From Actinomycetota bacterium (lineage in GTDB: Bacteria; Actinomycetota; Geothermincolia; Fen-727; JAQURN01): a DNA stretch of 31,309 nt. The notes under the pieces are model-generated. The model saw only the letters and a program-made list of their open reading frames with translations. It was not told where the DNA came from and searched no databases. The position numbers and the translations under genes are program-made. Positions within the stretch are counted from its first letter, which is position 1, and each line of letters begins with the position of its first letter. Positions 5,786 through 28,374 of this stretch are shown here, piece by piece. The stretch covers positions 1 through 31,309 of the forward strand of contig JAQURN010000001.1 in assembly GCA_028715585.1 (NCBI GenBank). The letters run 5' to 3'.

Positions 5786-6052
5786 ATGCCAAACATAAAA
5801 TCTCAAAAGAAAAGGTTGATTAAATCGAGGGAAAGCCGAGCAAGAAACAAATCCGCGAAGTCGGCTCTAAAAACGAAAGTCAAGAAGTTTCGCGCTGCCT
5901 GCGAGGAAGGAGACGCTACCAAGGCTGCCGAGCTCTTTCGCGATGCTTCACGCTCGTTCGACAAAGCGGTATCAAAGGGAATCTTGCACAAAAATAAGGC
6001 TGCTAACGAAAAATCCCGCCTAGCGCGGGCTTTGAATTCCCTCAATTCATAA
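5786..6052 (+). CDS. rpsT: 30S ribosomal protein S20
   Basis: MPNIKSQKKR...RNKSAKSALKTKVKKF...FDKAVSKGILHKNKAANEKSRL; SD GCGGAG; usual holA/rpsT/lepA context. Confidence 0.97.
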   Translation: MPNIKSQKKRLIKSRESRARNKSAKSALKTKVKKFRAACEEGDATKAAELFRDASRSFDKAVSKGILHKNKAANEKSRLARALNSLNS

Positions 6053-6056
6053 TTTG

Positions 6057-12737: not shown

Positions 12738-13391
12738 CTACCATCCCTCCCCAATTGTATGTGAAGAGCCGGCTTTCTCGGCGAGCGTCCTCGCAAAGTC
12801 TCCATCGAGTATGCCTGTCGACACAAAGCTAACCACTTCTCGCGCCATCGATTCGACGTCTATCACTCCCCTCTCTCCCCCTAATGCCACCCGGTATGGA
12901 ACCTGGAAAAAAAGCATTAGCATCGCCTTTGCGATGAGGTCAGTATCCATGGGCCTAAAGACTCCCATTTTTATGCCACTATCTAGTATCCCAGCGATGA
13001 GATTGGACATCTTGCGGTCGAAATCGTCCCACAGAGCATATAGCGATGGGTCAGCCGAAAACGCCTCCTGAAAATAAACCAGGACCAAATCCTTGTTTTC
13101 CAGAAACAACCTGTAAAACATCGCGAGTCCCTCATGAATCTTCCCTGTTAGAAGGTCAGGGTCGAGATTTTCCGCCACCACGGTATTCCTGGTTGATTCA
13201 TAGAGATTTCTGAGAAATGAACTCATCAACTCGGAAAATACGTGGCGCTTGCTCAAAAAATACTTGTAGAAGGTCGCTCGGGCAACATCAGCTTCATTGA
13301 TTATGTCCTGTACAGTGGCTTTCTTGAATCCCTTTTCAGAAAAGACTTTTTTGGCTGCGGAAAGAATTTTAGAGCTCGTTTCAGATTTCAT
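12738..13391 (-). CDS. TetR/AcrR family transcriptional regulator; probable start ATG 13391 rather than 13445
   Basis: N-terminal HTH ILSAAKKVFSEKGFKKATVQDIINEADVARATFYKYFLSK; divergent from the flavoprotein gene. Confidence 0.9.
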   Translation of the reverse strand: MKSETSSKILSAAKKVFSEKGFKKATVQDIINEADVARATFYKYFLSKRHVFSELMSSFLRNLYESTRNTVVAENLDPDLLTGKIHEGLAMFYRLFLENKDLVLVYFQEAFSADPSLYALWDDFDRKMSNLIAGILDSGIKMGVFRPMDTDLIAKAMLMLFFQVPYRVALGGERGVIDVESMAREVVSFVSTGILDGDFARTLAEKAGSSHTIGEGW

Positions 13392-13479
13392 CTCTCGTCT
13401 TCCATCAGATGAATAGCGTTCTTCAAAGCATTTTAGCAACAACAAGGCTAATCGTGTGAGATAAGTGCAATTTGCCCTG

Positions 13480-13496
13480 AATCATTTTTGATGATT
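13480..13496. promoter_or_regulatory. Candidate operator (inverted repeat) in the tetR / oxidoreductase divergent promoter region
   Basis: AATCAT-ttttg-ATGATT perfect 6-bp arms, extendable imperfectly to tgAATCAT...ATGATTga, 23 nt upstream of ATG 13520. Confidence 0.35.
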
Positions 13497-13519
13497 GAAT
13501 CGTGAAAAGGTGGTAAGAA

Positions 13520-14605
13520 ATGGCTAAAAAGTCTAGAAAAGTAACCATATATGGCGCAGGAATGTCGGGGCTTATCGCGGCAATCAACTTGAGGAGAGAT
13601 GGCTTCCAGGTCACCGTAAAGGAAAAAGAGCCTACCTACGGTGGCTCTAGCATTTACAACCCATCCACCCACGTAACCCCACTTGACCTCAAGGCAACGT
13701 CAAAATACATAGGCATCGACATATCTAGTGTTTTTCACGAAGTTTCAGCATGTCCCTCTTATTTCGGCAAAACAAAGGTACTTCTCCCCGTACATGAAGT
13801 GTACGCAGTCGAGCGTGGCAACCGAGAAACGAGCCTCGACACGCTTCTTTTCAACGAATGCAAGGAAATTGGAGTCGATTTCGAATTCGATTCTCCGCTT
13901 ACTCAAGAAGAAGTCCAAAATCTCCCTCCTGATTCGATTATTGCCTGCGGCCTTACTCCTTCCGCCTACGAGATGCTCGGCATCCCTTACTTGAAGTGGT
14001 TCGGGTGGATTTCGAGAGGAGAAATCAGATTGAATAGTTACGCCTGGCTATGGTGGGGCAAATGCGTGACGGAATATGGCTATTTCTCTTCGGTGAACAA
14101 CTATTACTTCGACCTCCTTTTCAGCATAAAACCAGTGTCGAAATCCTGTCTGGATGAGTACATCTCATTCATGGCACACGCCGAGGGAATCGAACATAAA
14201 GACTGGCAATACGTATCGGGAGCGGTTCCAATAGCCTCACCTGAAAATCCCCGCCTATTCTGGAAAAATGCCATCCTTTGCGGGACGATATCAGGGGCAC
14301 AGGACCCCTTCATGTGGTTTGGCATATCAGGGGCACTCATAACCGGCAAAATCGCCGCGCTCGCGCTAACCGACAAGGAAAAAGCGGAGAGGGAATTCAG
14401 GCGCTTCACCCGCTGGTTTAGCCAAGCGTTCTGGTTCAAAAACAAAATCTGGTATCGGTTTGTGCGTCCAAATATCCAGCAACTCGAACGTGGAATTAGG
14501 CTAATCGGACCAAAAAGAGTAGAAAAGCTAGCCCACTTAACCGAGACTGGCAAAATACCAGCGAGGATGGCGATTCCTGGCTTCAGCCATTTGAGCTGCC
14601 ATTAG
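13520..14605 (+). CDS. FAD-dependent oxidoreductase, geranylgeranyl-reductase-like
   Basis: Rossmann motif VTIYGAGMSGLIAA...VKEK; VERG motif; C-terminal LCGTISGAQDPFMWFGISGALITGKIAA resembles the GD(A)AG..DP..G.GI..A..SG..AA segment of GGR-type flavoproteins. Confidence 0.65.
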   Translation: MAKKSRKVTIYGAGMSGLIAAINLRRDGFQVTVKEKEPTYGGSSIYNPSTHVTPLDLKATSKYIGIDISSVFHEVSACPSYFGKTKVLLPVHEVYAVERGNRETSLDTLLFNECKEIGVDFEFDSPLTQEEVQNLPPDSIIACGLTPSAYEMLGIPYLKWFGWISRGEIRLNSYAWLWWGKCVTEYGYFSSVNNYYFDLLFSIKPVSKSCLDEYISFMAHAEGIEHKDWQYVSGAVPIASPENPRLFWKNAILCGTISGAQDPFMWFGISGALITGKIAALALTDKEKAEREFRRFTRWFSQAFWFKNKIWYRFVRPNIQQLERGIRLIGPKRVEKLAHLTETGKIPARMAIPGFSHLSCH

Positions 14606-14608
14606 AAG

Positions 14609-16081
14609 CTATCGTTTCTTGAAGATCCTTCGTGCCAAAACAAGCGACATAAGCCCGAGGAACCCATAGGTAAGGGGACGCATTGCTTTGAGAAGGGGCT
14701 CATTGGGTTCAAATTCCACGTTCAAGGATACTTTCTTTGCGAGCTTGTCAGCGGCAATAAGTTCGGATGTCTTGTTGGCGGTCCATATTGCCGCCTCCAT
14801 CCCCCCGGAGCTCACGCTCGTTTGAGTAAAATCGCCAGTGAGATAGAGATTGTCGTAAGGACTCCGCTGGAAAGGGCGCCTGCTTTCCATACCAGGATAT
14901 GGACGATAAACCCCTTGCCTCTCCCGCACCACCTTGTACTTACGAACGCTTGCTTCTTTCGCGGCAGGAAAAAGACTTTTTATTTGCTCGAGGGCAATTT
15001 CGAATATCACGTTATCTGGAAGTCCACGAATGTGGTCAGCGGGCGAAAGGACCATCTCGAACATGCTTCCGCCTTTGAATATATGAGGGAGGACGTTGGA
15101 AAGGTCCGCAAAGGTATTGAAGATGCAGTCATTCGCGAAAAATGTCACATCCACATCGGTCAGTTTTTTGTCGAACCAGATTTGCAGAGAAAGTGAAGGG
15201 GCATATTCGAAATGCCACAAATCGCGAAAGTACTCATATGAGTATGCGCTTTCCGGAAGTATCTTTCTCAAGGCAAAAGGACTCATCGCGGAAACGTAGA
15301 TATCGGCTTCAAGTGATTCCTCGCCGTTGACAACTACATTTTGAACTTTGCCATCTTCCACGTTGATTGCCGTCACCTCTTTTTTTAGGGAGGCCTCTCC
15401 CTCTTTGTTCTTGATGTAATCAACACATTTCTCGACCCATATCTCGCCAAGACCTCCATTGGCAAATCCAACCCTCGCGTTCTGAGCTGACCCCATTACC
15501 TTAAGAACCCAGTTGAGCATGACCTTTGCCGATACGGCATATGAGGGAGTAAACGTGAGTCCATTTACTCCTGGTTCCATGAGCTTCAAGCCGTCGAGAG
15601 GTCCATACCTATAGACGAGGGAAGCCATGCTCACCTTATCGTATTCATTTATTTTTTCTTTGCTCATCAAGAACGCGGAGCCAATTGGAACGCATGCGGG
15701 AAGAAACTTCCACCGCGGAATTCCACGATAATCCTTGAGAAGGTGCATATATCCATAAACCCCATGCAAGGGAGCTGGCAAATCTATAAACTTCAAAACC
15801 GCGTTCTTGCCACCTGGCTGGGCGTAGTAGAATTCAGTGTTCTTCCAGAGGATGTTGTCGTAGATGCCCATCTTCTTGAAGAATTGTATGAGGTTGACAT
15901 AGTAGGGAAAGAAAACGTGAAGGGCATTATCAACCATGTCCCCATCCTCATCCCTCCATGAATTCGCCCTCCCCCCAAATATTTCATCAGCCTCGACTAG
16001 GGATACATCTATCCCAAGGTCTAGGAGATTTATCGCGGTAGCCAAGCCGCTCATTCCGCCGCCCATTATCAGTGCCTTCAA
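14609..16081 (-). CDS. FAD-dependent oxidoreductase, phytoene desaturase (CrtP/ZDS) / HpnE-like amine oxidase superfamily
   Basis: IMGGGMSGLATA...VEADEIFGGRANSWRDEDGDMVDNALHVFF parallels the PDS GG..AAW.D.DGD..ETGLH.FF segment; RPFQRSPYDNLYLTGDFT...GGMEAA; hydrophobic C-terminal tail; TTG start with SD GAGGGGG. Confidence 0.8.
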   Translation of the reverse strand: MKALIMGGGMSGLATAINLLDLGIDVSLVEADEIFGGRANSWRDEDGDMVDNALHVFFPYYVNLIQFFKKMGIYDNILWKNTEFYYAQPGGKNAVLKFIDLPAPLHGVYGYMHLLKDYRGIPRWKFLPACVPIGSAFLMSKEKINEYDKVSMASLVYRYGPLDGLKLMEPGVNGLTFTPSYAVSAKVMLNWVLKVMGSAQNARVGFANGGLGEIWVEKCVDYIKNKEGEASLKKEVTAINVEDGKVQNVVVNGEESLEADIYVSAMSPFALRKILPESAYSYEYFRDLWHFEYAPSLSLQIWFDKKLTDVDVTFFANDCIFNTFADLSNVLPHIFKGGSMFEMVLSPADHIRGLPDNVIFEIALEQIKSLFPAAKEASVRKYKVVRERQGVYRPYPGMESRRPFQRSPYDNLYLTGDFTQTSVSSGGMEAAIWTANKTSELIAADKLAKKVSLNVEFEPNEPLLKAMRPLTYGFLGLMSLVLARRIFKKR

Positions 16082-16116
16082 GCTTTACCCCCCTCGATTT
16101 GCGCCAGGACTAGTTT

Positions 16117-17775
16117 TTACCGCTTCTCTTTCTTTTCCTGCTCGCGTTTTTTCATTTCTTCTTCCAGGAGAGCACGCCTCAACACCTTTCCAACCAGAGT
16201 CTTTGGCAAGGAGTCCCTGAACTCTACGAGCCTCGGTGCCTTATAAGAAGCAAGACGCTCTCTCCCATAAGCAATCATTTCTTTTTCAGTAGCTTCTTCG
16301 CCGGGCTTGAGAACTAGGTACACTTTCACAGTCTCTCCACGGTATTCATCTGGGATGCCTATGGCGACCGCTTCCTGTACCTTTGGATGCGCATAAAAAA
16401 CCTCGTCTATCTCCCTAGGGAATATGTTGAATCCTCCGGCGATTATCAAGTCTTTCTTCCGGTCAACTACATAGAAATAACCATCCTCGTCAACGGTGCA
16501 GATGTCTCCCGTGTAGAGCCATCCGTCTCTAAGAGTCTGGGCGGTTTCCTCGGGCTTGTTCCAGTATCCCTTCATCACTTGTGGACCACGAATGCACATC
16601 TCCCCTGGTTCGTTCAAGCCAAGTTCCACCTCTCCAGTCTCCGTATCGACTATCTTTACCTCGGTGTCTGGGAATGGCATTCCAATAGAGCCTATTTTCT
16701 TCATCCCAAAAACTGGATTGGAGTGGGTAACCGGCGATGCCTCGGTAAGCCCATATCCTTCGCATACGATTCCCCCAGATAGGCGAGAGAAATTCTTTTG
16801 AACCTCGATTGGAAGCGGCGCGGACCCGGAGTTGCACAATTTTATACGATCCACCCCATACTTCTTGGCTTCTGGGTGACTCAATATAGAAACATACAGA
16901 GTGGGAACCCCGGGGAAGAAGTTGGGCTTATATTTCTGGATAGTCTGAAGCATCATGTTTATCTCAAACTGGGGAACCAGAATCATGGTAGAAGCACTAA
17001 AAATAGAAAAATTCATGCAGACGGTTTGTCCGTATGAGTGGAAAAATGGAATCACGGAGAGGCAAACATCTTTACCTCGTTCGACAAATTCCCTTCCCCA
17101 AAAGCTGACCTGCAAGGTATTACTCACTAGATTTTTATGGGTAAGCATTGCCCCTTTTGTCAGCCCCGTGGTTCCTCCAGTGTATTGGATTACAGCGACA
17201 TCTTCGTCGGGATTTATTTCTATGTCTGGCACTTCTGATGAGGACTCCTCTACAAGCTCCTTGAAATAATAGTCGTTTGTGCCCTTCTGGGCGGAAGGAG
17301 TAACAGGGGTCTCCATGTAATCGGTAATGCTGGATATTATTCTCTTCTTTACAGGTGTTTTATCCTTTACCGCATCAATTCTCTCGTGGAAGAGGTCGAG
17401 GTATATAATCGTTTCGGCTCCACAATCGTTGAGTTCGTATTCGAGCTCTCTTTCCACGTGAAGCGGGCTTATTGTGGCAACACATCCCCCCGCGAGCAGA
17501 ATGCCATAATAAGCGATAATCATCTGGGGACAGTTGGGAAGCATAAGCGCAACCCTGTCCCCCTTCTTCACTCCAAGCCCTATCAGGGCGGCGGCAAAGC
17601 GCCGCACCTGCTCACGAAGCTCGCCGTACGTCAACTTCTGATCGAAAAATACAGTCGCTACAGTGTCCTCATAGCGCATGCAAGAAATCTCGAGAATTTT
17701 ATAAAGGGAAATCCGTGGGTATCTTATAGTTTCAGGTACGAAGTAGTCATAGTTCTTGATCCAAATTTTTTCCAT
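16117..17775 (-). CDS. Long-chain fatty acid--CoA ligase (FadD/LcfA-like)
   Basis: YTGGTTGLTKG AMP-binding motif; IPFFHSYG; EGYGLTEASPV; GWLYTGD; VDRKKDLIIAGGFNIFPREIDE; LPKTLVGKVLRR. Confidence 0.93.
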   Translation of the reverse strand: MEKIWIKNYDYFVPETIRYPRISLYKILEISCMRYEDTVATVFFDQKLTYGELREQVRRFAAALIGLGVKKGDRVALMLPNCPQMIIAYYGILLAGGCVATISPLHVERELEYELNDCGAETIIYLDLFHERIDAVKDKTPVKKRIISSITDYMETPVTPSAQKGTNDYYFKELVEESSSEVPDIEINPDEDVAVIQYTGGTTGLTKGAMLTHKNLVSNTLQVSFWGREFVERGKDVCLSVIPFFHSYGQTVCMNFSIFSASTMILVPQFEINMMLQTIQKYKPNFFPGVPTLYVSILSHPEAKKYGVDRIKLCNSGSAPLPIEVQKNFSRLSGGIVCEGYGLTEASPVTHSNPVFGMKKIGSIGMPFPDTEVKIVDTETGEVELGLNEPGEMCIRGPQVMKGYWNKPEETAQTLRDGWLYTGDICTVDEDGYFYVVDRKKDLIIAGGFNIFPREIDEVFYAHPKVQEAVAIGIPDEYRGETVKVYLVLKPGEEATEKEMIAYGRERLASYKAPRLVEFRDSLPKTLVGKVLRRALLEEEMKKREQEKKEKR

Positions 17776-17843
17776 GTCACTCGCCTCTCTTTCTCGATGT
17801 AAAGACCCCTAAGCTCCTAAATAATACAATATCAAACTCGCGG

Positions 17844-19403
17844 CTAACAAAAAACCGAAAGCGCCTCATCTCGTCCTCCAAAGACAAACGCGGTAACTGA
17901 ATGGGCAGGGAAGGTGTAGTTGGAAAGTACATCTCCAACATCAGCGGAAGAACATGAAACGCTGACCTTTCTGTCGTTGGAAACAGTATTCACCGAGAGA
18001 GCGTCAGGAGCGTCGAGAAGATAGATATACACATTGCCGCTGGGGTTGTACCCTTTTAACTCTATTTGCGCCTCGATGTCGTTTGCCCAATCACGGTTTA
18101 TGACGAATAAAACAAGAGTCTCGCCATCCTCACTTAGCTGGGAGCTAACATCGAGAATAGGGACCCCGCTCATCTGTTGAATTCCCCCAAAAGCCGGAGA
18201 CGAAAAGGTTCTGCCTTTGAAATTAGTCTCAACCACCACTGGTTCGGAGAGGTTCGCGTACATGAGAAACGGATAATAAATGGCAGTTCTATGCACCTTC
18301 TCCCCGCGAGCGCTAACTACCCCTAAAACATTGGCAAACTGGGCGATATTTGCCATCTTTACAGTGTTCGCGTGCCGATGAAGAACGTGAAATACCCCGC
18401 TCACAAAAAGCGCGTCTCTCAGATTCCAGCGCGGGAAAAAAAGTTGCGCGGGGTTCCACCACAGATTCCACTCATCTAAAGCGATAACCGGCTTTCCAGC
18501 CGAACCCATAATTTTCTCTATATCCTCTTCGACTTGGATTAGCCTTCTTTCAAGCTCCAGTGGAGCAGACACAATAGCTCGATATACGCCCTCTGGTCCA
18601 TGCTTTGCCGCGGACGCCAACACTCCTAAAATTCTCTCCCATCCTGGAAGATAGACATGGATGGAAAGAAAATCTATCCATTCCCCCGCGATTTCGAGAA
18701 CTTTGCGGTTCCATGTATCGCTGAAATAATGGTCGGCGCCTACAGCCACAAGATTTATTCCATCGTCTGCTTCCTTCATGGCGTCTCTGAATTCGAGGTA
18801 ACCCCTAGCGTACTCTGCTGGACCCCTGTGACCAAGAGCCCAGAATCCATAAATCTCGTTTCCCACCCCCCAAAGTTTCACACCATATGGCTCTTCTCTG
18901 CCATTCGCGGCTCGCTTATTTCCGCCAAAGGTGGACTTGTCTCCGTTCATGTATTCCACCCAGTCTCTGGCCTCCTCGGGAGTCGAAGTGCCAAAATTCA
19001 CGTTTATATAGGCTTGGGCACCTACGGACTCGATAAGTTCCATGAATTCATGGCTACCAAACGCATGGGGGTCCAGAACGCGCGTAAGTGGGCCATATCT
19101 CGACCAATACCTGTTTATCCTCAAAGGCCTACCTTCTACAGGTCCTATACCGTCTCTCCAGTTATAACCATCAGCATAAAGCCCCCCAGGCCAACGAATG
19201 ACAGGGGCACCTACGTCCTTCAAGTATTTCACCATCTCGTCTCTCACAACCCATGGCGAGAGCATGCCAGGTTTTTCTTTCTTCAAAATACCCCCATACA
19301 GCGAGCGGGCCATATTTTCGATGAAATGCCCATATATCTTGGGGTCTATTTCTCCTGTCTTTCGGGAGGCATCAACTTCTATAAGATTTTTTGTCATCAC
19401 CAC
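17844..19403 (-). CDS. Glycoside hydrolase family 51 (alpha-L-arabinofuranosidase-like), no signal peptide seen
   Basis: IYGHFIE, RWPGG..ADGYNWRDGIGP, FGSHEF, WVEYMN, WGVGNE (acid/base Glu), LDEWNLW (nucleophile Glu), VKMANIAQ. Confidence 0.9.
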   Translation of the reverse strand: MVMTKNLIEVDASRKTGEIDPKIYGHFIENMARSLYGGILKKEKPGMLSPWVVRDEMVKYLKDVGAPVIRWPGGLYADGYNWRDGIGPVEGRPLRINRYWSRYGPLTRVLDPHAFGSHEFMELIESVGAQAYINVNFGTSTPEEARDWVEYMNGDKSTFGGNKRAANGREEPYGVKLWGVGNEIYGFWALGHRGPAEYARGYLEFRDAMKEADDGINLVAVGADHYFSDTWNRKVLEIAGEWIDFLSIHVYLPGWERILGVLASAAKHGPEGVYRAIVSAPLELERRLIQVEEDIEKIMGSAGKPVIALDEWNLWWNPAQLFFPRWNLRDALFVSGVFHVLHRHANTVKMANIAQFANVLGVVSARGEKVHRTAIYYPFLMYANLSEPVVVETNFKGRTFSSPAFGGIQQMSGVPILDVSSQLSEDGETLVLFVINRDWANDIEAQIELKGYNPSGNVYIYLLDAPDALSVNTVSNDRKVSVSCSSADVGDVLSNYTFPAHSVTAFVFGGRDEALSVFC

Positions 19404-19412
19404 TCCCTTTCC

Positions 19413-20261
19413 CTATAAAAGTCTCTCTCCACAAAGAGGGGGGCTGGATGAATAAATCTCGTCGATTAAAATCACGCCATATTTTGCCCCAGCGAAACTT
19501 CTCGCCTCTCTAAAATCTCCTTTGATTTGATAACTCACAGCGTCTTGTGTCACGATGCCCAAAGCTATCCTTTTCCCCTCCTCTAGCCTTGCGACTTCGC
19601 TATTGTGTTTCTTTATCCTCAATACGAGTGTTCCGCCCCTCTTCAGGTGAACAGCAAGAGATGGAAATGCCCGCGGAACGCCATCATCGCCCACAAACGC
19701 TATGGCTTTCACACCAAGAAGGCTATTGAATCTCTTTCTCACGGCGGATGGAACGCTAAGATAACTTTTATTCCTCTCTCGGATCAAACTTCCAAAAAGA
19801 TGGGTCGCGAGGAAATCCGATAAGTAGCCAAGATACGAGGCGCCCGCTGGGAGATTTGTTTTTTCGGTGAGGCGTATTATTCCCACGTTGTGGATACCCA
19901 TGTAGGCATTGTATCTAAAGAACTCGATGCTATTTATCTCATCGATAACAGGACCACTATCCACCCATTCCTCCACCTCACCCTCGAAACCAGCAAACTC
20001 GAGCTTTTCAGATACGGCAACACTTGCCAAATGTTTGTCATTAAGAAGGTTCTCTTTCGTCTTCACCATCATGAAATCTCCAAATGCCACCTTCCCGTTA
20101 TCAATTGGCATCTGGCTTATGATGAGCGCGATGTTAGGCTCTCCCTCCGCGGAGACTGTGGCAAGGAATTTAGCCGCTTGGGGCTCTCGATACAAATCGA
20201 GCTCCCGAGGTGAGAGCGTCACGCCTTCTTCACCTTGCAAATCCAGCTTTTTCAAGTTCAA
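19413..20261 (-). CDS. Tandem pyridoxamine-5'-phosphate-oxidase-like (FMN-binding split barrel) protein
   Basis: Two similar halves: AKFLATVSAEGEPNIA...KTKENL and VKAIAFVGDDGVPRAFP...SYQIKGDF. Confidence 0.7.
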   Translation of the reverse strand: MNLKKLDLQGEEGVTLSPRELDLYREPQAAKFLATVSAEGEPNIALIISQMPIDNGKVAFGDFMMVKTKENLLNDKHLASVAVSEKLEFAGFEGEVEEWVDSGPVIDEINSIEFFRYNAYMGIHNVGIIRLTEKTNLPAGASYLGYLSDFLATHLFGSLIRERNKSYLSVPSAVRKRFNSLLGVKAIAFVGDDGVPRAFPSLAVHLKRGGTLVLRIKKHNSEVARLEEGKRIALGIVTQDAVSYQIKGDFREARSFAGAKYGVILIDEIYSSSPPLCGERLL

Positions 20262-20270
20262 ACCCGCGCT

Positions 20271-21236
20271 TTAACTCTTGGTCATTCCAGACCAGTGGAC
20301 ATTTTTTGCCCCGCAAGAAATCGCCTTTCTCGCTAGACTTTCCATCTTTGAGTGCTCGAGAAGAGGCTTTCCCTCCAGCTTCCATTCCATAGAGAGTCGC
20401 TTATACTTCGATGCGCATGTATTGTTGAATGCCAGCAAATCGTATCTCTGGACGTTATCGAGCGAAGAGACAAATCTCAAAATACCTTCGATATTTTCCT
20501 CGGCATCCGTGTAGCCGGGTATTATTGGAGTTCTTATCCACACCGGCTTTCCAAATTCGGAAATGGTTTTTAAATTTTTTGTAACCAGTTCAAGAGGTAT
20601 CCCGGTCCACTCAAGATGCTTTTCTGGGTCAGAAACTTTCACGTCCAACAAAACTATATCAACAAATGGAAGGACTTCCTCTAAAGCCTCCACCTCATAA
20701 CCTCCAGAGGTGTCTAACGCTGTGTGCAATCTGTTCTCTTTGCAAAGGCGAAGGAATTCCTTTACGAAATGGTGTTGAACTAGGGGCTCTCCCCCGGATA
20801 CCGTTATGCCACCCCCAGAATTCTCGTAGAAAGCACTGTCTCTTACTACTTCGCTCAACACTTCCTCGGGAAGATAATATCTACCCACCAGCTCAATCGC
20901 TCCCGTGGGACAAGCTTCCGCGCACTTTCCACAACCATCACATCTTCCTCTGTCTATCAACATACCAGATGGCTCCAGCCGCAAAGCGTCTTGCGCGCAA
21001 ACTCTCACACATTCCAGAGCCGCTATGCACCGCGTTTCAAACCACATTATCTCCTGTTTCTTCTTAAGTCCCTCTGGATTCTGGCACCATGGGCAACGGA
21101 GGGAACACCCTTTCATAAAAACCGTGCTCCTGATTCCAGGGCCATCCTCTATCGAAAACCTCTGGATGTTGAATATGAGCCCTTTTAGAGCGCCTTCAAA
21201 TTCAGAATCCGTGAGATTCTCTGGCGATGATTTCAT
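20271..21236 (-). CDS. Glycyl-radical enzyme activating protein (radical SAM with ferredoxin-like insertion)
   Basis: IFNIQRFSIEDGPGIRSTVFMKGCSLRCPWCQNPE; insertion CDGCGKCAEACPTGA; GGGITVSGGEP; HTALDTSG; IRTPIIPG; overlaps the GRE stop by 35 nt. Confidence 0.95.
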   Translation of the reverse strand: MKSSPENLTDSEFEGALKGLIFNIQRFSIEDGPGIRSTVFMKGCSLRCPWCQNPEGLKKKQEIMWFETRCIAALECVRVCAQDALRLEPSGMLIDRGRCDGCGKCAEACPTGAIELVGRYYLPEEVLSEVVRDSAFYENSGGGITVSGGEPLVQHHFVKEFLRLCKENRLHTALDTSGGYEVEALEEVLPFVDIVLLDVKVSDPEKHLEWTGIPLELVTKNLKTISEFGKPVWIRTPIIPGYTDAEENIEGILRFVSSLDNVQRYDLLAFNNTCASKYKRLSMEWKLEGKPLLEHSKMESLARKAISCGAKNVHWSGMTKS

Positions 21237-23595
21237 CCTGAACTTCTTTCCCTAAAGTAGTGAAGTACGCGTTATACCCCGTTACTCTCACCAAAAGGTT
21301 GGAATACTCGACTGGTTTTCTCTGGGCTTCCTTTAGGGTTTCTGGGTCTATCACGTTTATCTGAAGTGCTGTTCCTCCAACTTCGCCATAAGCCTTGATG
21401 TAGAAAGCGAATTTTTCTATCTTTTCCTCCCCCTTAAGAAGCGAGGGATTGAAAGAAATAGTATGAGAATCCCCACTTGGAGCGGTCTCCAGCCCGAGCT
21501 TTCCGACCGATTTGGCAACAGCGGTGGGTCCATTTCTATCTGTGCCGTTCACGGGACAGACCCCATTGGAAAGGAATGTGCCTCTGTGTCTGCCATCGGG
21601 AGTTGCTGAAGTAAAGGGGGCATACGCAACCCAATAATTCCAGGAGAGATACCCACCGCGATACCTCCTCCCAGTGGGGGTTTGGTGCTTGAAGGCTTCC
21701 TGTGTCCAAAACCTGGAGAGGTATCTCGCTACTTCGTCGGCATAATCATCATCGTTTCCGTATTTTGGGGCTTTGTTTAACAAGAGGCGACGTAGTTTTT
21801 CGTTCCCCTCGAAATTTTCCCTTATGGCACGGGTAAGCTCAGCCATGGATACAGTTTTATCCTCATAGACAAGCTTCTTTATCGCGGCAAGAGAATCGGC
21901 AGCGGTGGCAAAAGCAACCCCTTCCATGGTCACGTAATTGTGCTCGGGTCCAGCATTTGTCACATCCCTACCCGACTCCGCACATCCCCTCACCAGAGCG
22001 GAAAGATAAGGGGTGGGCTCATACTTGCTCCGCAAACCATCCGAGATGTTATAAAGGCTCACCAGCTTTGAGATAAGTGATTTTAGCTGTTCCTCGAACG
22101 CTTCCTTGAAATCATTCCAATCGGCGAAACGCTTTGGGTCGCCAGTGCGTGGTCCAAGCCTCTTCCCGCTTGCGGCATCCTTTCCGTTGAAAAGGGTGAG
22201 CTCGACAGCCTTAGCCAGGTTGATGTTTACATCTACGGTTCCCGACCTATCATTTCCCTGGAGGGTGTTTTCGAGACAGCCAACTGGCGCATAATCCCAG
22301 ACATCCTCCTCAGGTAACCCCTCCCACTTGAGTCCAGCCTCCGACTTTTCGTCGAAGTTCAAGATGAAAGGCGAGCCCTGAGCGGAAGATACCATTCCGG
22401 CAAGGCGCAGAATGAGTTTTGGCGGGGTATTCTTGTGTATGCGCACGTTCGGTTTGGGCTCGAGGAGGTTCATCTCCTCTATGACCTCTAACATAAGCCA
22501 TGTGAGTTCATTCGATACATCTTCACCATTAGGACCATGACCACCCAGAGTTACGAGCTGTCCATAGCCACTGGTTATCCCTCTGGTTCTTCCAACTCGA
22601 TGCATGAAGTCATACGCATAATTTGGCTTTATCCAGAAGCACTCGAGCAACTCCTTTGCCCATTCTCTCGTGAGCTTTCCCTCCTCCAAATCTTTTTTGT
22701 AATAGGGGAACAAATACTGGTCTATCCGACCAAAAGAAAGCCCTGGGCCAGGATAGGACTCCTGGGTCATAACCAGCATGTGCAAAAACCAAAGAGACTG
22801 GAGCGCTTCGTGAAATGTTTCAGCGGGTTTGCCAGGGGTCTTTTCGCAGATTCTTGCTATTTCCCCTAACTCCTGCCTACGCCGTTCATCCGTACAGCTA
22901 GAGGCAAGCTTTTCTGCTTCTTTCGAATATCGCTTAGAAAATGCTTTTGCTCCTTCGCAAGAAATCACCAACGCCTCGAGAAAATCTAGGTGAGACTTAG
23001 AAGCGGCATTTTCTTTCAATCCCTCGAAGTAGGAAATCAGTCCATCAAGCCCAAATCTCAATGCCCTGGGGTAATCTGGAATCAAATGCCCCGGGGTGGC
23101 TCCAGCATTTCCCATCCCAGAGGAGTTGAGCTCGCCCATGAGCTTTATCCACTTTTTCGTAAGCTTTCTCCAATGACGGCTCTCTTTCTTGTTCAGCGAT
23201 CGGGAAAGTACAGCATTGAAATGCCCGCCCACGATGAGCTCTCCATCCAAAATCCTCACGGGAATATAGGTTGAAACGACTTCCCGAAAGAAGATAGCGG
23301 CACGCAGAATGAGTGGTTTGTCCCAGAAATCGCCTGGAAGTTCTACCGTCTTTGCCGCGAGTGGAAGCGTTTCCAAAAAGGCAGGCTGGAATTGGAACAA
23401 TTCCGGTACGACTCCCCATTCGCTGGGAGACCATACGGTATCCCAACCCTTCCCATTCGAAAAGGGAATCAGCTCGTTTCGAAAATACTTGCGGCTCTCG
23501 ATGTCTGCGTACTCCTCGCGGAGCCTCGAGACTCTTTCCGAAAGCTTCTGGGAAGGTCCCCAGATTTCCCTAGCAGCTTGACTACTCTCATTCAT
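21202..23595 (-). CDS. Glycyl radical enzyme (PFL2 / glycerol-dehydratase-like family), substrate unknown; probable start ATG 23595
   Basis: Gly loop LLVRVTGYNAYF; Cys loop YAPVGCLE; ETFHEALQSLWF; SFGRIDQYLFPYY; NKAPKYGNDDDYAD; ATPDGR; LQINV; adjacent activating enzyme. Confidence 0.93.
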   Translation of the reverse strand: MNESSQAAREIWGPSQKLSERVSRLREEYADIESRKYFRNELIPFSNGKGWDTVWSPSEWGVVPELFQFQPAFLETLPLAAKTVELPGDFWDKPLILRAAIFFREVVSTYIPVRILDGELIVGGHFNAVLSRSLNKKESRHWRKLTKKWIKLMGELNSSGMGNAGATPGHLIPDYPRALRFGLDGLISYFEGLKENAASKSHLDFLEALVISCEGAKAFSKRYSKEAEKLASSCTDERRRQELGEIARICEKTPGKPAETFHEALQSLWFLHMLVMTQESYPGPGLSFGRIDQYLFPYYKKDLEEGKLTREWAKELLECFWIKPNYAYDFMHRVGRTRGITSGYGQLVTLGGHGPNGEDVSNELTWLMLEVIEEMNLLEPKPNVRIHKNTPPKLILRLAGMVSSAQGSPFILNFDEKSEAGLKWEGLPEEDVWDYAPVGCLENTLQGNDRSGTVDVNINLAKAVELTLFNGKDAASGKRLGPRTGDPKRFADWNDFKEAFEEQLKSLISKLVSLYNISDGLRSKYEPTPYLSALVRGCAESGRDVTNAGPEHNYVTMEGVAFATAADSLAAIKKLVYEDKTVSMAELTRAIRENFEGNEKLRRLLLNKAPKYGNDDDYADEVARYLSRFWTQEAFKHQTPTGRRYRGGYLSWNYWVAYAPFTSATPDGRHRGTFLSNGVCPVNGTDRNGPTAVAKSVGKLGLETAPSGDSHTISFNPSLLKGEEKIEKFAFYIKAYGEVGGTALQINVIDPETLKEAQRKPVEYSNLLVRVTGYNAYFTTLGKEVQDEIIARESHGF

Positions 23596-23629
23596 CCTTC
23601 GACACCACCACTTGCGAACGTGCCAACAC

Positions 23630-24889
23630 TCAACTTTGTTCGAGGTTCTTCTCAACCCAAGAGAGCATCGAATCGAGGCGCTCGATAACCTCCAGCGCTT
23701 CCTCCTTTTTTATGATAAGGGGAGGAAGTATCTGGCTTATCGACGTGTCATTGTTAGCGTAAATCGTAAGGATACCGTTCTGGAACCCAGCAAGCGTCAG
23801 CATCGGTCCGCACCACTCGGTTGCCATTTTCAAGCCAATCATAAGCCCTTTTTGTCGAACCTCCACGAGGAGTTCGGGATATTTAGCCTTCAACTCCAAG
23901 AGCCCTTTTTCAAAAAGGCTAGCCATGCTTCTCACATGCTCTAGAAATTCAGGACGCTCGAGTATTTCCACCACCTTGAGAGCAACACGACAGCCAACCT
24001 CTGACCCTCCAAAAGTAGATATATGAATGAAGGGATTTTCATGGAAAAAGCCATCTAGCTCATCGCTATAAACCACGGCTGACATGGGATAAATTCCTCC
24101 AGAGAGCCCTTTCCCGGTAACAATCATGTCTGGAACGACCCCGTAGGTGTCGATTGCCCAATATGCCCCGCATCTCCCAAGCCCGGTTTGCACCTCGTCG
24201 CAAATCATCACCGCGCCTTTTTCCTTTGTAATCCTACGTACCTCCTTAAAATAGTCTTCTGGAGGAATAGCCATCCCTAAAGTGGCGGGAATGGTTTCGA
24301 AAAGAACCGCCGCCGTGTTTTCATTCACAGCCTGTTCCAATTGTGAAACATCCCCAAATTTAACTTTCTTATATCCGGGGACCAACGGCTCGAAGGGTTT
24401 GGAATACAGTTCGTCTCCCGCTGGAAGAGCAAAGCCAGTGTGCCCATGAAATCCGCCGATGGCGGAGACTATCTCCGCCCTTTTCGTGTAACCCCTTGCA
24501 AGCTTGATAGCAATGTCTATTGCCTCACCTCCACCAGCAGCGAAAACAACGCGGTTTACATCCCCTGGACAAATGCCCGCCAGCCTTTCACCAAGTATTG
24601 CTTTTTGCTCGCTCATGAAGTGATGGTTACCGATATCAAGCTCGCCAAGTGCCTCTTTCAGAGTATCGACTATTTCTGGATTGCGGTGTCCGAGGTTGAA
24701 CACGCCCCCGTTGCAGTGACAATTGATAAGTTTCATCTTCTCATCCATGTCATATATGTATATTCCCTCTCTCCTACCAGGGATGAAATCCAACCCTGCC
24801 TTGGTAAAAAAATCCGCCTTCCCGCTCGAGACATATCGCCCAAATTTCTCGATTGCTTCCTTTTTACTCAAACTCCCAATCAAACTCAT
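23630..24889 (-). CDS. Class III aminotransferase-fold PLP enzyme (PatA/ArgD/HpnO-like)
   Basis: GVFNLGHRNP, GGGEAID.AIKLAR, GFHGHT, DEVQTGLGR, GKGLSGG (PLP lysine), STFGG; SD AGGAGG. Confidence 0.93.
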   Translation of the reverse strand: MSLIGSLSKKEAIEKFGRYVSSGKADFFTKAGLDFIPGRREGIYIYDMDEKMKLINCHCNGGVFNLGHRNPEIVDTLKEALGELDIGNHHFMSEQKAILGERLAGICPGDVNRVVFAAGGGEAIDIAIKLARGYTKRAEIVSAIGGFHGHTGFALPAGDELYSKPFEPLVPGYKKVKFGDVSQLEQAVNENTAAVLFETIPATLGMAIPPEDYFKEVRRITKEKGAVMICDEVQTGLGRCGAYWAIDTYGVVPDMIVTGKGLSGGIYPMSAVVYSDELDGFFHENPFIHISTFGGSEVGCRVALKVVEILERPEFLEHVRSMASLFEKGLLELKAKYPELLVEVRQKGLMIGLKMATEWCGPMLTLAGFQNGILTIYANNDTSISQILPPLIIKKEEALEVIERLDSMLSWVEKNLEQS

Positions 24890-24946
24890 CTCTCCTCCTA
24901 AAAATCCTCAAAAGCCACATAGGGGCATCGAAATGCATCCCTCGCA

Positions 24947-25963
24947 TCACACCGTTTTCTTAAACTGCCAATGGCGTTTTACCCTGGGCGGAAGTACATA
25001 TGGATAATCTTTTCTTAGCACTTTGGTTCGAAAGAATCTATCCAGCTTTCTCAAGTCGAGGTACACACTCCATACAGCAGCGTCTTTTCTGTAAAAACTA
25101 TCCACCTCCTTTTGGGAAATCGGAAACACTCCCAATGTTTTCCCCTCTTGTGAAAAGAAATCATTTGCGACCTCGACAAGTTCTCCCACTAGCTCTGACA
25201 TGCCTTCCTTGTGAAAATTGGCAATCATGTCCACGACAAGTCCCCTCAAATCATAGTAATGCCCAACCACATCCTCCAGCACCAGATTGCCAAGAAGTCG
25301 CGCAAGAAGCGGAGGAGAATTTCTCAGGAACAATTCCGTGTTGAGTTGCTCAACACCGTCAATTCTGTAAAGGGGTGTAGAGGTGTCGAAGTATTTCAAC
25401 TGAATATCATCGCCAAGCCCGGGATTCTGCTGGTCGAAACCCATAATCGACCAGTTAGAGACTTGTCCATCTATCGCAATCTGAACATCCGGATTTCTCT
25501 GGTTAAATTCCCAGACTTTCATGAACTCCCCAAGGACTGCGCGCACGAGTTTGGCTATTTCTTCCTTGGCGAGAACATGGATAGCTCTGTGCCCAATGGA
25601 AAGTGGGTCCAGTTTCTCTTGGATGATGTAGAATACCGGTCTCCCAGCGCTAGAAACAAAACCTACTCCCCAGTAACGGGGAAGCTTCAAGCCAGCTTGC
25701 AAAAGCAGGTCGCAATAGGTTTCATAAACCGCCTCATACCTGCGTAGTTCGAATTCGCTTACAAACATTGGCATCCGCTTGAAAGCAAAATCTTTGACTT
25801 CTTCCTTTTGAATCTCCAAGACGGTCCCTATTTCCCCATAGCCAAGAATTTTAGCTGGTATCCCGCTCCTCTCTGGGTGTTTGGGGTCTAAAGAATCCTC
25901 GAACCTCTTTATTAGTTCGATTTTCACAGGGAGATCCGCGACATAGCTTTTCTCATCACCCAT
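24947..25963 (-). CDS. DUF6206-like protein with protein-kinase-like motifs; probable start ATG 25963 rather than 26038
   Basis: FEDSLDP.HPERS.IPAKILGYGEIGTV...AFKRMPMF recalled as DUF6206 (from memory, not searched); GxGxxG, beta3 Lys, DGQVSN and YFD motifs. Confidence 0.65.
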   Translation of the reverse strand: MGDEKSYVADLPVKIELIKRFEDSLDPKHPERSGIPAKILGYGEIGTVLEIQKEEVKDFAFKRMPMFVSEFELRRYEAVYETYCDLLLQAGLKLPRYWGVGFVSSAGRPVFYIIQEKLDPLSIGHRAIHVLAKEEIAKLVRAVLGEFMKVWEFNQRNPDVQIAIDGQVSNWSIMGFDQQNPGLGDDIQLKYFDTSTPLYRIDGVEQLNTELFLRNSPPLLARLLGNLVLEDVVGHYYDLRGLVVDMIANFHKEGMSELVGELVEVANDFFSQEGKTLGVFPISQKEVDSFYRKDAAVWSVYLDLRKLDRFFRTKVLRKDYPYVLPPRVKRHWQFKKTV

Positions 25964-26078
25964 TCTCACCACTCGCAAATCCTCTTTATTTCCAAACGAA
26001 TGGTGTAAGCTTACCTCATTGTGCATTGATTTTTCCAAAGATAAAAGCTCTCAAGAAGGCAAATGGAAGGTAAAAAAA

Positions 26079-27302
26079 CTGAAAGTGGCCGAGCTGGATA
26101 ACTTTTTCGCCTTTGAAAAATGTGACTCTTGTGGGGAATGCCTCCTCCGGTGTCCCGAGTTCGGGAGCAATCTTCCAGGTGCAAAGAAAGCTTTTCAAGA
26201 TCTCCTGGATGGGTGGGAATCATCGGAAATCCTCTCGAGATGCAATTCCTGCATGAGCTGCAATGTTTCCTGCGACAAAGGGGCTAATCCATATGGTTTG
26301 ATACTCTACCGCTGGCATCAAAGAAACGCCTCAAAGGGTTATCCCTTAAGAGCATCTCTGGTAATGCCCCTAGAACCGGAAAACGTATGGCAGAGGGTAC
26401 TAAGGAAACTACCACCCGATGAATGGGCAACATTGGAGGAGTGGAAAAATATCGAGAGAGCATCCATCAGGAACATAGCACTTTTTGCGGGTTGCAATCT
26501 GCAGATATTTCCTTATCTCGCGCATCCTTCAATTGTCGGCGATATCCCTATTTTTGGGAGACCTGATTTGTGCTGTGGAGAGGTCTATTATCGCGTTGGA
26601 GCGCTAGGAAGGGTAGAAAAAATTGCCCAGAGGCTCGTGGAAATATACTCAGAGTTTCCTATAAAGCAACTCGTATTCTACTGCCAGGCTGGCTATAACA
26701 TGCTCAAAAATATCCTCCCGACATATTTCGGAGCTTCTTTCCCATTTCGAATTACATACCTGGGGGATGAGCTATATCAAAAGGTCATGTCCGGAGAGCT
26801 GGATGTAAAGGACAAGCTCGCTGGGCTCAAGGTAACCCTTCATGACCCGTGCCATTCAAAGGTCCTGGGAAGAAATTTCCAAAGCAAACCGAGAGAGATC
26901 CTCGAGCATATGGGGTGCCGTGTCATCGAGATGGAACACAACCGCTCTTACGCGCGTTGCTGTGGCCTTGGAAATGGAGCAGCACGCTTCAATCCCATTG
27001 ATATAACCCTCGGCTGCGCAAAACGGCTTTTAGAAGCCAAGAAAACGGGGGCAGACAGGCTCATCACTTATTGCAACACATGCTTTTTGCTCTTTTCCAT
27101 TGGAAGCGAGCTCACTCCATTTGGAGTCGAGCCATATCACCTGAATGAACTAATCCTCGAGGCTCTTGGAGAAAAATACGAACGCAGAAACCTCGCCAGG
27201 GGGCGCTTGATGCTAAAAGAACTCGCCCTTGGCGGTTTCCCTACGGTCTTGTCTCCCAAACGCTTTCAGCTGGACGATTTCCACTCCCCAGCGCAGCAAT
27301 AA
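26079..27302 (+). CDS. (Fe-S)-binding protein with 4Fe-4S dicluster and two CCG domains (HdrD/GlpC/GlcF-like); start CTG 26079 or GTG 26085
   Basis: CDSCGECLLRCP and CNSCMSCNVSC; FAGC, LCCG, YCQAG; LHDPCH, RCCG, YCNTC. The ORF-track start at 26019 overlaps the divergent gene's extended ORF. Confidence 0.85.
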   Translation: MKVAELDNFFAFEKCDSCGECLLRCPEFGSNLPGAKKAFQDLLDGWESSEILSRCNSCMSCNVSCDKGANPYGLILYRWHQRNASKGYPLRASLVMPLEPENVWQRVLRKLPPDEWATLEEWKNIERASIRNIALFAGCNLQIFPYLAHPSIVGDIPIFGRPDLCCGEVYYRVGALGRVEKIAQRLVEIYSEFPIKQLVFYCQAGYNMLKNILPTYFGASFPFRITYLGDELYQKVMSGELDVKDKLAGLKVTLHDPCHSKVLGRNFQSKPREILEHMGCRVIEMEHNRSYARCCGLGNGAARFNPIDITLGCAKRLLEAKKTGADRLITYCNTCFLLFSIGSELTPFGVEPYHLNELILEALGEKYERRNLARGRLMLKELALGGFPTVLSPKRFQLDDFHSPAQQ

Positions 27303-27309
27303 ACGGAGG

Positions 27310-28374
27310 CTACATTCTCCACCTGTTGTACTCGCAAATGCCAACAACATTGGGAACTTGGATGTGGTCCCCATCAACTCCTGGAATCCTGCCCTCGAAT
27401 TTTCCGTAGAGCTGATGAAACTCAGACGCGACCACGCCCAAATTTAACTTTTTTGCGTGCTCCCCCATCGGGCTGAAGGTAAGATCTAGTTCGCCATCAG
27501 TAGAGCGAATCTTCCAGGTCGAGAACAGGTTTTCAGGGTCGATTTCGAACCTGACAGCAGGCATCAGTCCTATCTTTCCGTCGACCCACACACAATTCTC
27601 GTTGAATTCTTCATCATTTCGTATCAAGTTCTCGCAAGCGTTCATGGCAATGAGTTTGCCACTGTCATCGTAAAAGCCGAAGGTAGCCCAGTTCCAAAAA
27701 GTGTGGTAAGGATAATAGCCCTTGTGAACATCAATTAGGCAGACTGTTTTATCTGCTTCTAGTATTATGTCATCCATTCCGGGAATACTTACCCTGCCCT
27801 CACAAGGGCAAGCCGCTTTGTGGGTATATAAAGGTCTGTTTTCGCCAAGTGGACTTACTAGCACCAGGGGCTGAATCTTCTTTAAATCTTCCTGCACCAG
27901 AAACTCAGCGGATACATATCCCCTTTCTCTTGGCGACAAAACCCGAGCCGTCAGGCGATGAAAACCTTTCGAAAGGCGATTATCAAACTCCATGAAATAA
28001 CCAGGATGGCTGAAGTAACACTCCCCATGAAATAACTCCCTCGACAAGACTCGGTATGCAAAGAGGGGGTTGCGGCTGAAATCAAAAAGCTTTCCCCTAG
28101 AAAGATCAATTCCGTAAAAAAAGGACATCGAGGAAAACTTAGCATCGAATATAATCATCCCGAAATAATACTTTTCCCCAATGATTCCAAAATGCTGCCA
28201 CTCCTTCAACCGAAAGTTCTTCAGCCTCCACGGAAGCTTCAAGTCAAAAACCTTGAGGTCGGTGTCCAATATGTTCAACTCGTTAAACGGATGGGTCATG
28301 ACTCCAAATTGGGTTACCCTTCCATCTTCCACTAATCTATCGGGCGTAGCCTTCAATGTACGGTTCACCTGCAA
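27310..28374 (-). CDS. DUF2804-like protein of unknown function
   Basis: RLKEWQHF, LYTHK, DVHKGYYPYHTFWNWA, NENCVWVDG, FHQLYGKFEG motifs recalled for DUF2804; TTG start with SD AAAGGAGG. Confidence 0.7.
   Translation of the reverse strand: MQVNRTLKATPDRLVEDGRVTQFGVMTHPFNELNILDTDLKVFDLKLPWRLKNFRLKEWQHFGIIGEKYYFGMIIFDAKFSSMSFFYGIDLSRGKLFDFSRNPLFAYRVLSRELFHGECYFSHPGYFMEFDNRLSKGFHRLTARVLSPRERGYVSAEFLVQEDLKKIQPLVLVSPLGENRPLYTHKAACPCEGRVSIPGMDDIILEADKTVCLIDVHKGYYPYHTFWNWATFGFYDDSGKLIAMNACENLIRNDEEFNENCVWVDGKIGLMPAVRFEIDPENLFSTWKIRSTDGELDLTFSPMGEHAKKLNLGVVASEFHQLYGKFEGRIPGVDGDHIQVPNVVGICEYNRWRM

Follow-up and report, generated by a model that had tools for sequence, protein, structure and literature searches.

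Glycyl radical enzymes (GREs) perform some of the hardest oxygen-free reactions. In the described systems closest to the locus analysed here, a glycerol or propanediol dehydratase is encoded adjacent to an activase with a ferredoxin-like insert; HypD passes its product to P5C reductase, i.e. an eliminase-type GRE acts together with a redox partner; and the operons of HPAD, BSS and MASS (HPAD gamma, BSS beta/gamma and MASS delta) as well as the cut/GRM1-6 loci contain extra proteins that are co-inherited with the GRE. In a second type of described system, a kinase gene lies beside a gene for a class III-fold pyridoxal phosphate (PLP) enzyme, as in the pairs hydroxylysine kinase/PHYKPL and ethanolamine kinase/ETNPPL (6tor). 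Whole GRE clades are still without an assigned function (PMC13450708). Here, we analyse a locus in a 31.3-kb stretch of DNA (the window), which is the whole contig JAQURN010000001.1 of a landfill metagenome-assembled genome of Geothermincolia (Actinomycetota; 1.4 Mb, 84% completeness). In this locus, both types of arrangement meet: a cassette of genes for a GRE, its activase and a tandem split-barrel protein follows directly on a gene pair for a DUF6206 protein and a class III PLP enzyme. The locus is modular, the cassette is conserved across the class, and cassette and pair have been joined repeatedly and in different arrangements in other lineages. On balance, we favour the reading that the locus is a mosaic of separately inherited modules in which pair and cassette act on one and the same small molecule.

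Genes were identified by Pfam and NCBIfam profile searches of the 21 large open reading frames (ORFs) of the contig, and gene starts were corrected against L064, a 92%-identical relative. DNA matching the contig was found in landfill metagenomes only, and no RNA run was among the data sets listed; the names given to close homologues place the genome in or near Anoxymicrobiaceae. The genes of the pair and the cassette are the following:

24947-26038 (ORF; probable start 25963), minus strand: DUF6206 protein (Pfam DUF6206, 72.7 bits)
23630-24889, minus strand: atypical class III PLP enzyme (Aminotran_3, 263 bits)
21202-23655 (ORF; probable start 23595, 797 aa), minus strand: GRE (PFL-like 481 bits and Gly_radical 89 bits)
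20271-21236, minus strand: GRE-activating radical SAM enzyme with a ferredoxin-like insert (TIGR02494, 335.6 bits)
19413-20261, minus strand: tandem split-barrel (PNPOx-like) partner (weak Pfam PNPOx_N match)

The GRE is a member of the superfamily by both of its Pfam domains (PF02901, 481.5 bits; PF01228, 89.2 bits). In an alignment of 34 orthologues, the glycyl radical loop RVTGYNAYF is conserved at 90% or more at every position, with the radical Gly793 present in 34/34, and H190, C460, E462 and G793 are each conserved in 33-34 of the 34 sequences. C460 and E462 lie in a VGCLEN loop, i.e. they form the Cys-x-Glu signature of 1,2-eliminases of the glycerol dehydratase, propanediol dehydratase, HypD, CutC and IslA type, in which one catalytic Cys has a Glu at +2, and both are kept in 33/34. 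The best matches in the PDB are glycerol dehydratase (DhaB1/DhaB2 of Clostridium butyricum, 1r8w; E 1.8e-118), HypD (6vxc), CutC, A. fulgidus PFL2, the function of which is unknown, and propanediol dehydratase (5i2a; E 7e-111), all at a similar level and with alignments that begin only at about residue 185. From the conservation of the equivalent of His164 of glycerol dehydratase, of the Cys-x-Glu loop and of the radical Gly, we judge that the enzyme has the catalytic apparatus of a dehydratase-type eliminase.

The GRE shares with the glycerol and propanediol dehydratases the Gly loop, the thiyl loop, the His164 equivalent and the adjacent activase; it differs from them in the substrate pocket, the partner protein and the surrounding genes. 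We take the glycerol-binding residues of 1r8w to be H164, H281, S282, D447 and Y640. When these positions were mapped onto the 34 orthologues by HMMER alignment, only the H164 equivalent (H190) was kept, and H281, S282, D447 and Y640 were replaced by P/A, G, V and L. Thus, the pocket is predicted to be less polar than that of glycerol dehydratase and rather hydrophobic. Moreover, the GRE scores below the cut-off of the TIGR01774 subfamily (520, cut-off 678), there are no dha or pdu genes in the locus, and a BMC shell domain, by which a GRM locus would be recognised, was found in 0/21 of the large ORFs scanned, in agreement with a preliminary description of this DNA that had noted the absence of microcompartment shell genes. 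Finally, the GRE has an obligate tandem split-barrel partner, and a 2026 review of GREs describes none (PMC13450708).

HypD is the name that several public annotations give this GRE family. The two systems resemble each other in the combination of an eliminase-type GRE with a redox partner; however, the GRE scores 473 against the HypD profile (cut-off 1100), HypD Asp278 aligns with Pro304, and the partner is a split-barrel protein rather than P5C reductase. The scores are also below all other NCBIfam equivalog cut-offs, i.e. CutC (390, cut-off 1050), HpsG (454, 1000), HpfG (419, 1000), PFL (371, 1109), IAD (317, 1100) and HPAD (268, 1150). Clustering of the GRE with a characterised enzyme of unrelated substrate, which the preliminary description had named as refuting its reading, was therefore not seen. 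We conclude that the public names for this GRE, formate C-acetyltransferase and hydroxyproline dehydratase, are unsupported.

The activase is well above the cut-off of TIGR02494 (174.35). The split-barrel protein has 270-285 aa among relatives and no Cys clusters, and its AlphaFold model (pLDDT 89.8) consists of two fused barrels, each of which matches the haem-binding protein HupZ, the FMN-binding protein of D. vulgaris and the F420 reductase MSMEG_3380. Judging from this model, the protein probably binds flavin, deazaflavin or haem. It resembles the HPAD, BSS and MASS subunits in being an extra protein co-inherited in a GRE operon. Unlike those subunits, it is not an Fe-S protein: the accessory subunits of GREs in the 2026 review are only HiPIP-like and rubredoxin-like Fe-S proteins (PMC13450708).

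The three genes travel together. From 28 genomes, including one genome of another class (60% identity) and one 45%-identical outlier, we retrieved the GRE orthologue with its surroundings (~19 kb) and searched these loci with all proteins of the window. GRE, activase and split-barrel genes were adjacent in 28/28 loci. Similarly, when an alignment of the split-barrel partner was used to scan species-representative genomes, 42 loci were obtained, with the activase in 42/42 and the GRE in 40/42, the contigs being cut in the other two; six of these loci are from Chloroflexota, and five of the six are long enough to be read. The cassette is thus defined by the three genes in this order, the GCLE loop, the RVTGY loop and a two-barrel partner of ~270-285 aa, all of which the window has. 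GRE orthologues with at least 57% identity are present in 29/31 sampled genomes of the class, and identity is 60-72% across the class and ~61% to the Chloroflexota copies. The GRE is dispensable, since it is lacking from G046 (99% complete) and G289 (92% complete). In Chloroflexota, the cassette can stand among unrelated genes (gltX, WYL regulators, cas3).

Several lineages carry an additional gene within the cassette. In several Chloroflexota, a ferredoxin-nitroreductase fusion, i.e. 2x[4Fe-4S] and an FMN nitroreductase domain, lies between GRE and activase (L098:6913-8196, L099:7612-8760) as another flavin-type accessory gene. At the same place, L188:1888-4137 (+) encodes a 749-aa FG-GAP/ASPIC/PKD repeat protein that is apparently extracytoplasmic. 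Moreover, up to 12 first-look GRE candidates were counted per genome (in a 3.9-Mb genome of family f2), which makes Geothermincolia an unusually rich reservoir of unassigned GREs; a literature search found no paper linking GREs with Geothermincolia.

The pair is likewise a unit of its own. DUF6206 orthologues (46-54% identity) are present in most genomes of the class at chromosomal sites other than that of the cassette. In 12/12 class genome loci fetched, the class III PLP gene directly follows the DUF6206 gene, in varied contexts away from the cassette, and in a metagenome scan with a DUF6206 alignment (80 loci) the two genes are adjacent in 35 of the 49 loci having room downstream. Often, they are translationally coupled. 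The AlphaFold model of the DUF6206 protein (pLDDT 82.7) gave only kinases, including WaaP and APH(2''), among the best 50 PDB matches listed, and D165, N170 and D193 are invariant in 13 sequences. According to this model, DUF6206 has a protein-kinase-like fold with the catalytic motifs. A literature search found no paper mentioning DUF6206.

The PLP enzyme keeps the Schiff-base Lys and the DEVQTG motif; in it, ETIPATLG replaces EPIQGEGG, and Gln replaces the Arg before PPL. Among solved structures, putrescine aminotransferase is nearest to it (4uox, E 2.5e-62), and the match to ethanolamine-phosphate phospho-lyase has an E-value of 1.2e-33. The pair resembles the PHYKPL and ETNPPL pairs in that a kinase-fold gene lies beside a class III-fold PLP gene; its PLP enzyme is without features of ordinary 2-oxoglutarate-dependent transaminases. 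The pair differs from them in that DUF6206 does not belong to the APH or choline-kinase family by sequence, and in that the PLP enzyme is nearer to the putrescine and acetylornithine aminotransferases than to ETNPPL (E ~1e-62 vs 1e-33).

Two further observations concern DUF6206. In genomes of family f3 and some of family f2 (L037:14397-15152, L066:2305-2808), the CCG gene is separated from the cassette by the gene for a divergent DUF6206-like paralogue (28-38% identity, ORFs of ~515 aa), which is a further kinase-like link to the locus. Moreover, a DUF6206 copy has internal stops (three TAA) at G172:C11:76510-77481, and only fragments are left at G323:C25:42361-42785; therefore, the pair is being lost in some lineages that keep the cassette.

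At least four different arrangements join the pair to the cassette. One of them, seen in the window and L064, has the pair directly ahead of the GRE in a run of eight co-directional genes. In L130 and L203, the order is activase, DUF6206, PLP enzyme, split barrel. In the Chloroflexota genome G613 (locus L204), the genes on one strand are, in succession, those of GRE (56% identity), a Peptidase_C69 Cys-Ntn hydrolase, activase, DUF6206, PLP enzyme (61%) and split barrel; an 82%-identical end of this C69 gene is present in L203, and C69 directly precedes DUF6206 in twelve metagenome loci. In L188 and L198, the split barrel directly follows DUF6206, which in L188 is itself preceded by a second GRE of 969 aa; in genomes of family f2, the pair and this second GRE, there in copies of 989 aa, are divergently oriented. 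In a tree of DUF6206, the arrangements belong to separate clades, among relatives that are not linked to the cassette. Because the joining has recurred in different arrangements, a functional link between pair and cassette is likely; because some genomes have the cassette without the pair, it is not obligatory.

The second GRE family (969-990 aa) has an N-terminal extension of ~190 aa and is encoded at L188:5077-7986 (+), L112:3365-6334 (-) and L116:891-3860 and 3910-6882 (-). In L188, the extension is an SCP2 sterol/lipid-carrier domain (32 bits, cut-off 21.3), to which one G211 copy has a weak match (15.6 bits). To our knowledge, a GRE with a fused lipid-binding domain has not been described.

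Co-presence of the two modules was determined in 201 genomes of the class of G420, of which 28 have the split-barrel partner, 38 have DUF6206 and 19 have both. DUF6206 is present in 19/28 (68%) of the partner-positive and 19/173 (11%) of the partner-negative genomes (odds ratio ~17). Several observations weigh against a common function. An unrelated anaerobe marker, [FeFe]-hydrogenase, which served as a control, was also enriched in the partner-positive genomes (11/28, 39%, vs 12/173, 7%; odds ratio ~9); therefore, much of the co-presence is a signal of lineage or lifestyle, and the link that it provides is only suggestive. DUF6206 is absent from four Chloroflexota genomes that carry the cassette, 7/29 class genomes with the GRE have no orthologous DUF6206, and the orthologous pair is present in 0/42 of the partner-seeded genome loci. 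Moreover, the small size of the window's genome makes a packing of unrelated genes plausible.

These points favour the alternative that the modules are unrelated, i.e. that their adjacency results from genome streamlining and shared synteny and that the joins are coincidences in GRE-rich genomes. This alternative would fit the occurrence of cassette and pair each alone in most genomes, the up to 12 GRE candidates per family f2 genome, which raise the odds of adjacency, and the hydrogenase control, which shows that lineage effects inflate co-presence. However, in G613, L203 and L130 the two modules are interleaved: the pair splits the activase from the split barrel, genes that are otherwise always neighbours, and in the G613 type the C69 gene sits between GRE and activase. 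Such interleaving is hard to explain by chance. Moreover, there are at least four types of join in separate DUF6206 clades, and the odds ratio for partner and DUF6206 exceeds that of the control. In total, we consider chance packing unlikely, although it retains real weight.

Under the favoured reading of a mosaic, the core is an orphan cassette of an eliminase-type GRE, a radical-SAM activase and a tandem split-barrel protein. This cassette lies in an old, order-level neighbourhood by leuS, together with a cytoplasmic GH51-type glycosidase, an oxidase, a GGR-like flavoprotein with its own TetR regulator, a CCG protein and a DUF2804 protein; in this genus, the pair and an acyl-CoA ligase would then have moved in, giving the tight eight-gene run. 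Pair and cassette would act on a common small molecule, for which a hydroxylated amine is the simplest candidate. We propose the following steps, without a fixed order. The kinase-like DUF6206 protein would phosphorylate a hydroxyl. Because the usual carboxylate-binding Arg is lost, the PLP enzyme would remove or transfer the amino group, possibly by phosphate elimination; this phospho-lyase step is a guess, since the enzyme is nearer to true aminotransferases than to ethanolamine-phosphate phospho-lyase, which also counts against the proposal. By means of Cys460, Glu462 and His190, the GRE would remove a neighbouring hydroxyl through radical 1,2-elimination within its rather hydrophobic pocket, and the split-barrel protein would then handle a flavin-type redox step on the product. 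Glycosidase, ligase and oxidase are lineage-specific additions, at most putative members of the pathway, that may widen the range of precursors.

A more specific version of this proposal takes into account that the pair is often accompanied by the C69 amidase. Here, the two modules would be halves of one undescribed oxygen-free pathway for amino alcohols that bear an N-acyl group or a sugar, such as head groups of the sphingoid type or of other amino-lipids. The amino alcohol would be released by an amidase or glycosidase; kinase and PLP enzyme would take off the amine via a phosphate ester, leaving a hydroxylated carbon chain for the GRE to dehydrate. The window would be a variant with a glycosidase and a fatty-acid ligase. 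We regard this version as rather improbable.

The remaining genes of the locus and its flanks are the following:

10136-12607, minus strand: leuS
12738-13445, minus strand: TetR-family regulator (TetR_N, 54 bits, and TetR_C_24), divergent from the FAD gene
13520-14605, plus strand: GGR-like FAD protein, convergent with the oxidase gene
14609-16081, minus strand: Amino_oxidase-family flavoprotein, CrtP/HpnE-like (Pfam, 141.8 bits)
16117-17775, minus strand: AMP-forming acyl-CoA ligase, FadD-like (AMP-binding, 331.7 bits)
17844-19403, minus strand: GH51-type alpha-L-arabinofuranosidase-like glycosidase, cytoplasmic (match to GH51 structures)
26019-27302, plus strand: CCG-domain Fe-S protein (CCG, 44 bits, and 4Fe-4S motifs), divergent from the DUF6206 gene
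27310-28374, minus strand: DUF2804 protein (Pfam, 181.7 bits)

All genes named in the preliminary description, including the flanking GGR-like, CCG Fe-S, DUF2804 and TetR genes, are present where it placed them, and its mostly co-oriented, tightly spaced run is borne out by eight co-directional genes from DUF6206 (25963) through the oxidase (14609), with an 11-nt overlap to 68 bp between them. In run order, the spacings are 57 bp, ~34 bp, an 11-nt overlap, in which the activase gene overlaps the stop of the GRE gene by ~11 nt, and 9-51, 9, 68 and 35-65 bp; the arrangement in L064 is identical. The block had also been described as inserted after leuS. However, it is not a recent insertion, since its GC content (0.45-0.50) is the same as that of the flanks and relatives in other families of the order carry the same block next to TetR-leuS. 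We conclude that the block is an old neighbourhood and not a recent island.

Outside the window's genus, the neighbourhood of the cassette changes with the order. Loci of the window's order typically read CCG, (MFS), a secreted prenyltransferase-repeat protein, a small membrane protein and the cassette, followed by ACAD-like, GH51, (BsuPI, hydrolase), oxidase, GGR-like, TetR and leuS. The sister order has another Amino_oxidase, a B12-radical SAM and an ACAD-like gene ahead of the cassette, and GGR-like, an unknown protein and rnf after it. In detail, a 457-aa Amino_oxidase, a B12-binding radical SAM and an ACAD-like protein, in which Pfam detects the N and M domains only, precede the cassette at L062:4828-9718 and L063:5308-9648 and an rnf operon follows it; the upstream trio and the rnf set are conserved across family f6. 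In many of the 42 partner-seeded loci, the cassette has an ACAD-like gene as a neighbour (ACADnm in 23, ACADnm2 in 15), and genes for GPAT and PlsC-like acyltransferases and B12-radical SAM proteins also lie near it in relatives. In a low-GC outlier with a 45%-identical GRE, a GH31 glycosidase gene starts 2 nt after the split-barrel gene (L057:5552-8017, minus strand); here, a glycosidase was recruited independently for a second time. The prenyltransferase-repeat (SHC-type) protein upstream of the GRE in relatives was considered as an isoprenoid clue and dropped: it has a signal/TM start, its Pfam hits are all faint, and it does not resemble the 388-aa neighbour that the other order has.

GH51, oxidase, GGR-like, TetR, CCG and DUF2804 are neighbours of the cassette within the window's order only. 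The GH51 protein matches the Thermotoga structures 3s2c and 3ug3 over its full length (residues 8-501, E 1e-79), scores 270 against the NCBIfam ArfA equivalog (cut-off 625) and has no signal peptide. Its translation contains GNE and DEWN motifs; we take GNE (acid/base) and DEW (nucleophile) to be the catalytic glutamate motifs of GH51. The ligase is below the NCBIfam cut-offs for long-chain ligases and occupies its slot only in the window and L064, i.e. in this genus. CCG lies upstream of the cassette in relatives of families f2 and f3 only, and DUF2804 is a neighbour in L038, L041, L064, L065 and L076 only.

The oxidase scores below the NCBIfam cut-offs for phytoene desaturase (229.7, cut-off 569.4) and HpnE (192.5, cut-off 283). 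Orthologues with 66-67% identity are encoded elsewhere in G289 and G016; G289, which is without the GRE, retains the 67%-identical orthologue as well as a GGR-like copy. A class-wide link of an oxidase to the cassette was considered and rejected: because the AmOx457 of the other order is not orthologous to the window's oxidase, the apparent link is a resemblance at the family level only. Of the GGR-like protein, only the N-terminal Rossmann region was matched; against TIGR02032 (GG-red-SF), it scores 30.3 bits (cut-off 158.8), with only the C-terminal residues 208-281 matching. Its family is multi-copy, with 12 copies in G016, and is also present in the GRE-less G046. Eight tandem paralogues with 33-35% identity to window 13520-14605 form a 14-kb array at G016:C3:83177-97026, a striking expansion of an uncharacterised flavoprotein family in Geothermincolia.

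The preliminary description had called the island TetR-linked. A perfect palindrome, AATCAT-N5-ATGATT, lies at 13480-13496 within the 74-bp intergenic region between the TetR and FAD genes; it has no exact copy elsewhere in the window, and one other match, with 2 mismatches, is at 9837-9853. From its position, the palindrome is probably the TetR operator for the divergent TetR/FAD pair. As the exact palindrome is confined to the region next to the FAD gene, control of the GRE operon by TetR is not supported.

The preliminary description had read all eleven enzymes as one catabolic pathway that dismantles an amphipathic glyco-amino-lipid, with GH51 removing the sugar, the kinase, PLP enzyme and GRE processing the amino-alcohol or polyol core, and the ligase and flavoproteins processing the acyl or isoprenoid tail. 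The tight co-directional run, identical in L064, would agree with this, as would accessories of similar flavour elsewhere (C69 in G613, GH31 in L057, the SCP2 fusion in L188, ACAD-like genes) and a GRE pocket more hydrophobic than that of glycerol dehydratase. However, GH51, oxidase, GGR-like, CCG and DUF2804 are linked within one order only and the ligase within one genus, oxidase and GGR-like protein are also present in GRE-less genomes, the only candidate TetR operator is the one next to the FAD gene, and the Chloroflexota cassette is often alone among unrelated genes. Moreover, C69 amidase was not found in five class genomes, i.e. the window's genome and four relatives. Squalene/phytoene synthase (SQS_PSY, PF00494) was not found in G000 and four relatives either, in a search whose control matched 8/14 genomes; thus, these genomes appear not to make hopanoids or carotenoids themselves, and endogenous hopanoid or carotenoid metabolism was rejected. 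Co-occurrence across genomes, the lack of which the preliminary description had named as refuting its reading, therefore holds universally for GRE, activase and split barrel and fails for most of the block, because GH51, oxidase, GGR-like, TetR, CCG, DUF2804 and the ligase are limited to order or genus. One part of the earlier reading gains real support from the repeated joining of pair and cassette, namely that kinase-like protein, PLP enzyme and GRE work on a common core; a pathway of all eleven enzymes is improbable. Dismantling of a glycolipid may be retained as a minority reading, which the glycosidases (GH51 and the L057 GH31), the G613 C69, the ligase and the SCP2 fusion keep alive and do not establish.

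It is equally improbable that the cassette and its flavoprotein neighbours have a biosynthetic role, i.e. serve under anoxia to modify a membrane lipid or cofactor of the cell itself: such a role would account for the near-universal, highly conserved cassette (29/31 class genomes, with the GRE identities given above) and the lipid-type genes nearby in relatives (GPAT, PlsC-like, ACAD-like, B12-radical SAM, the expanded GGR-like paralogues), but G046 and G289 are without the GRE, the isoprenoid-condensing SQS_PSY was not found, the cassette neighbours differ between orders, and the characterised GREs of the clade are all catabolic except ribonucleotide reductase (PMC13450708).

For annotation, it follows that the 'island' should not be propagated as one pathway. 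The GRE clade is widespread, in this analysis in Actinomycetota and Chloroflexota, and it gave no hint of its substrate because its conserved neighbourhood consists only of the activase and an unknown split-barrel protein. The new element is the junction of pair and cassette, which recurs elsewhere in other gene orders: two widespread modules that have never been studied repeatedly share an operon and so probably work together. As the kinase-like/PLP pair, in Chloroflexota together with the C69 amidase, is repeatedly found in the operon, the search for the substrate is narrowed to phosphorylatable amines and amino alcohols. The link between pair and cassette thus gives a concrete and small substrate panel, by which an old orphan becomes testable.

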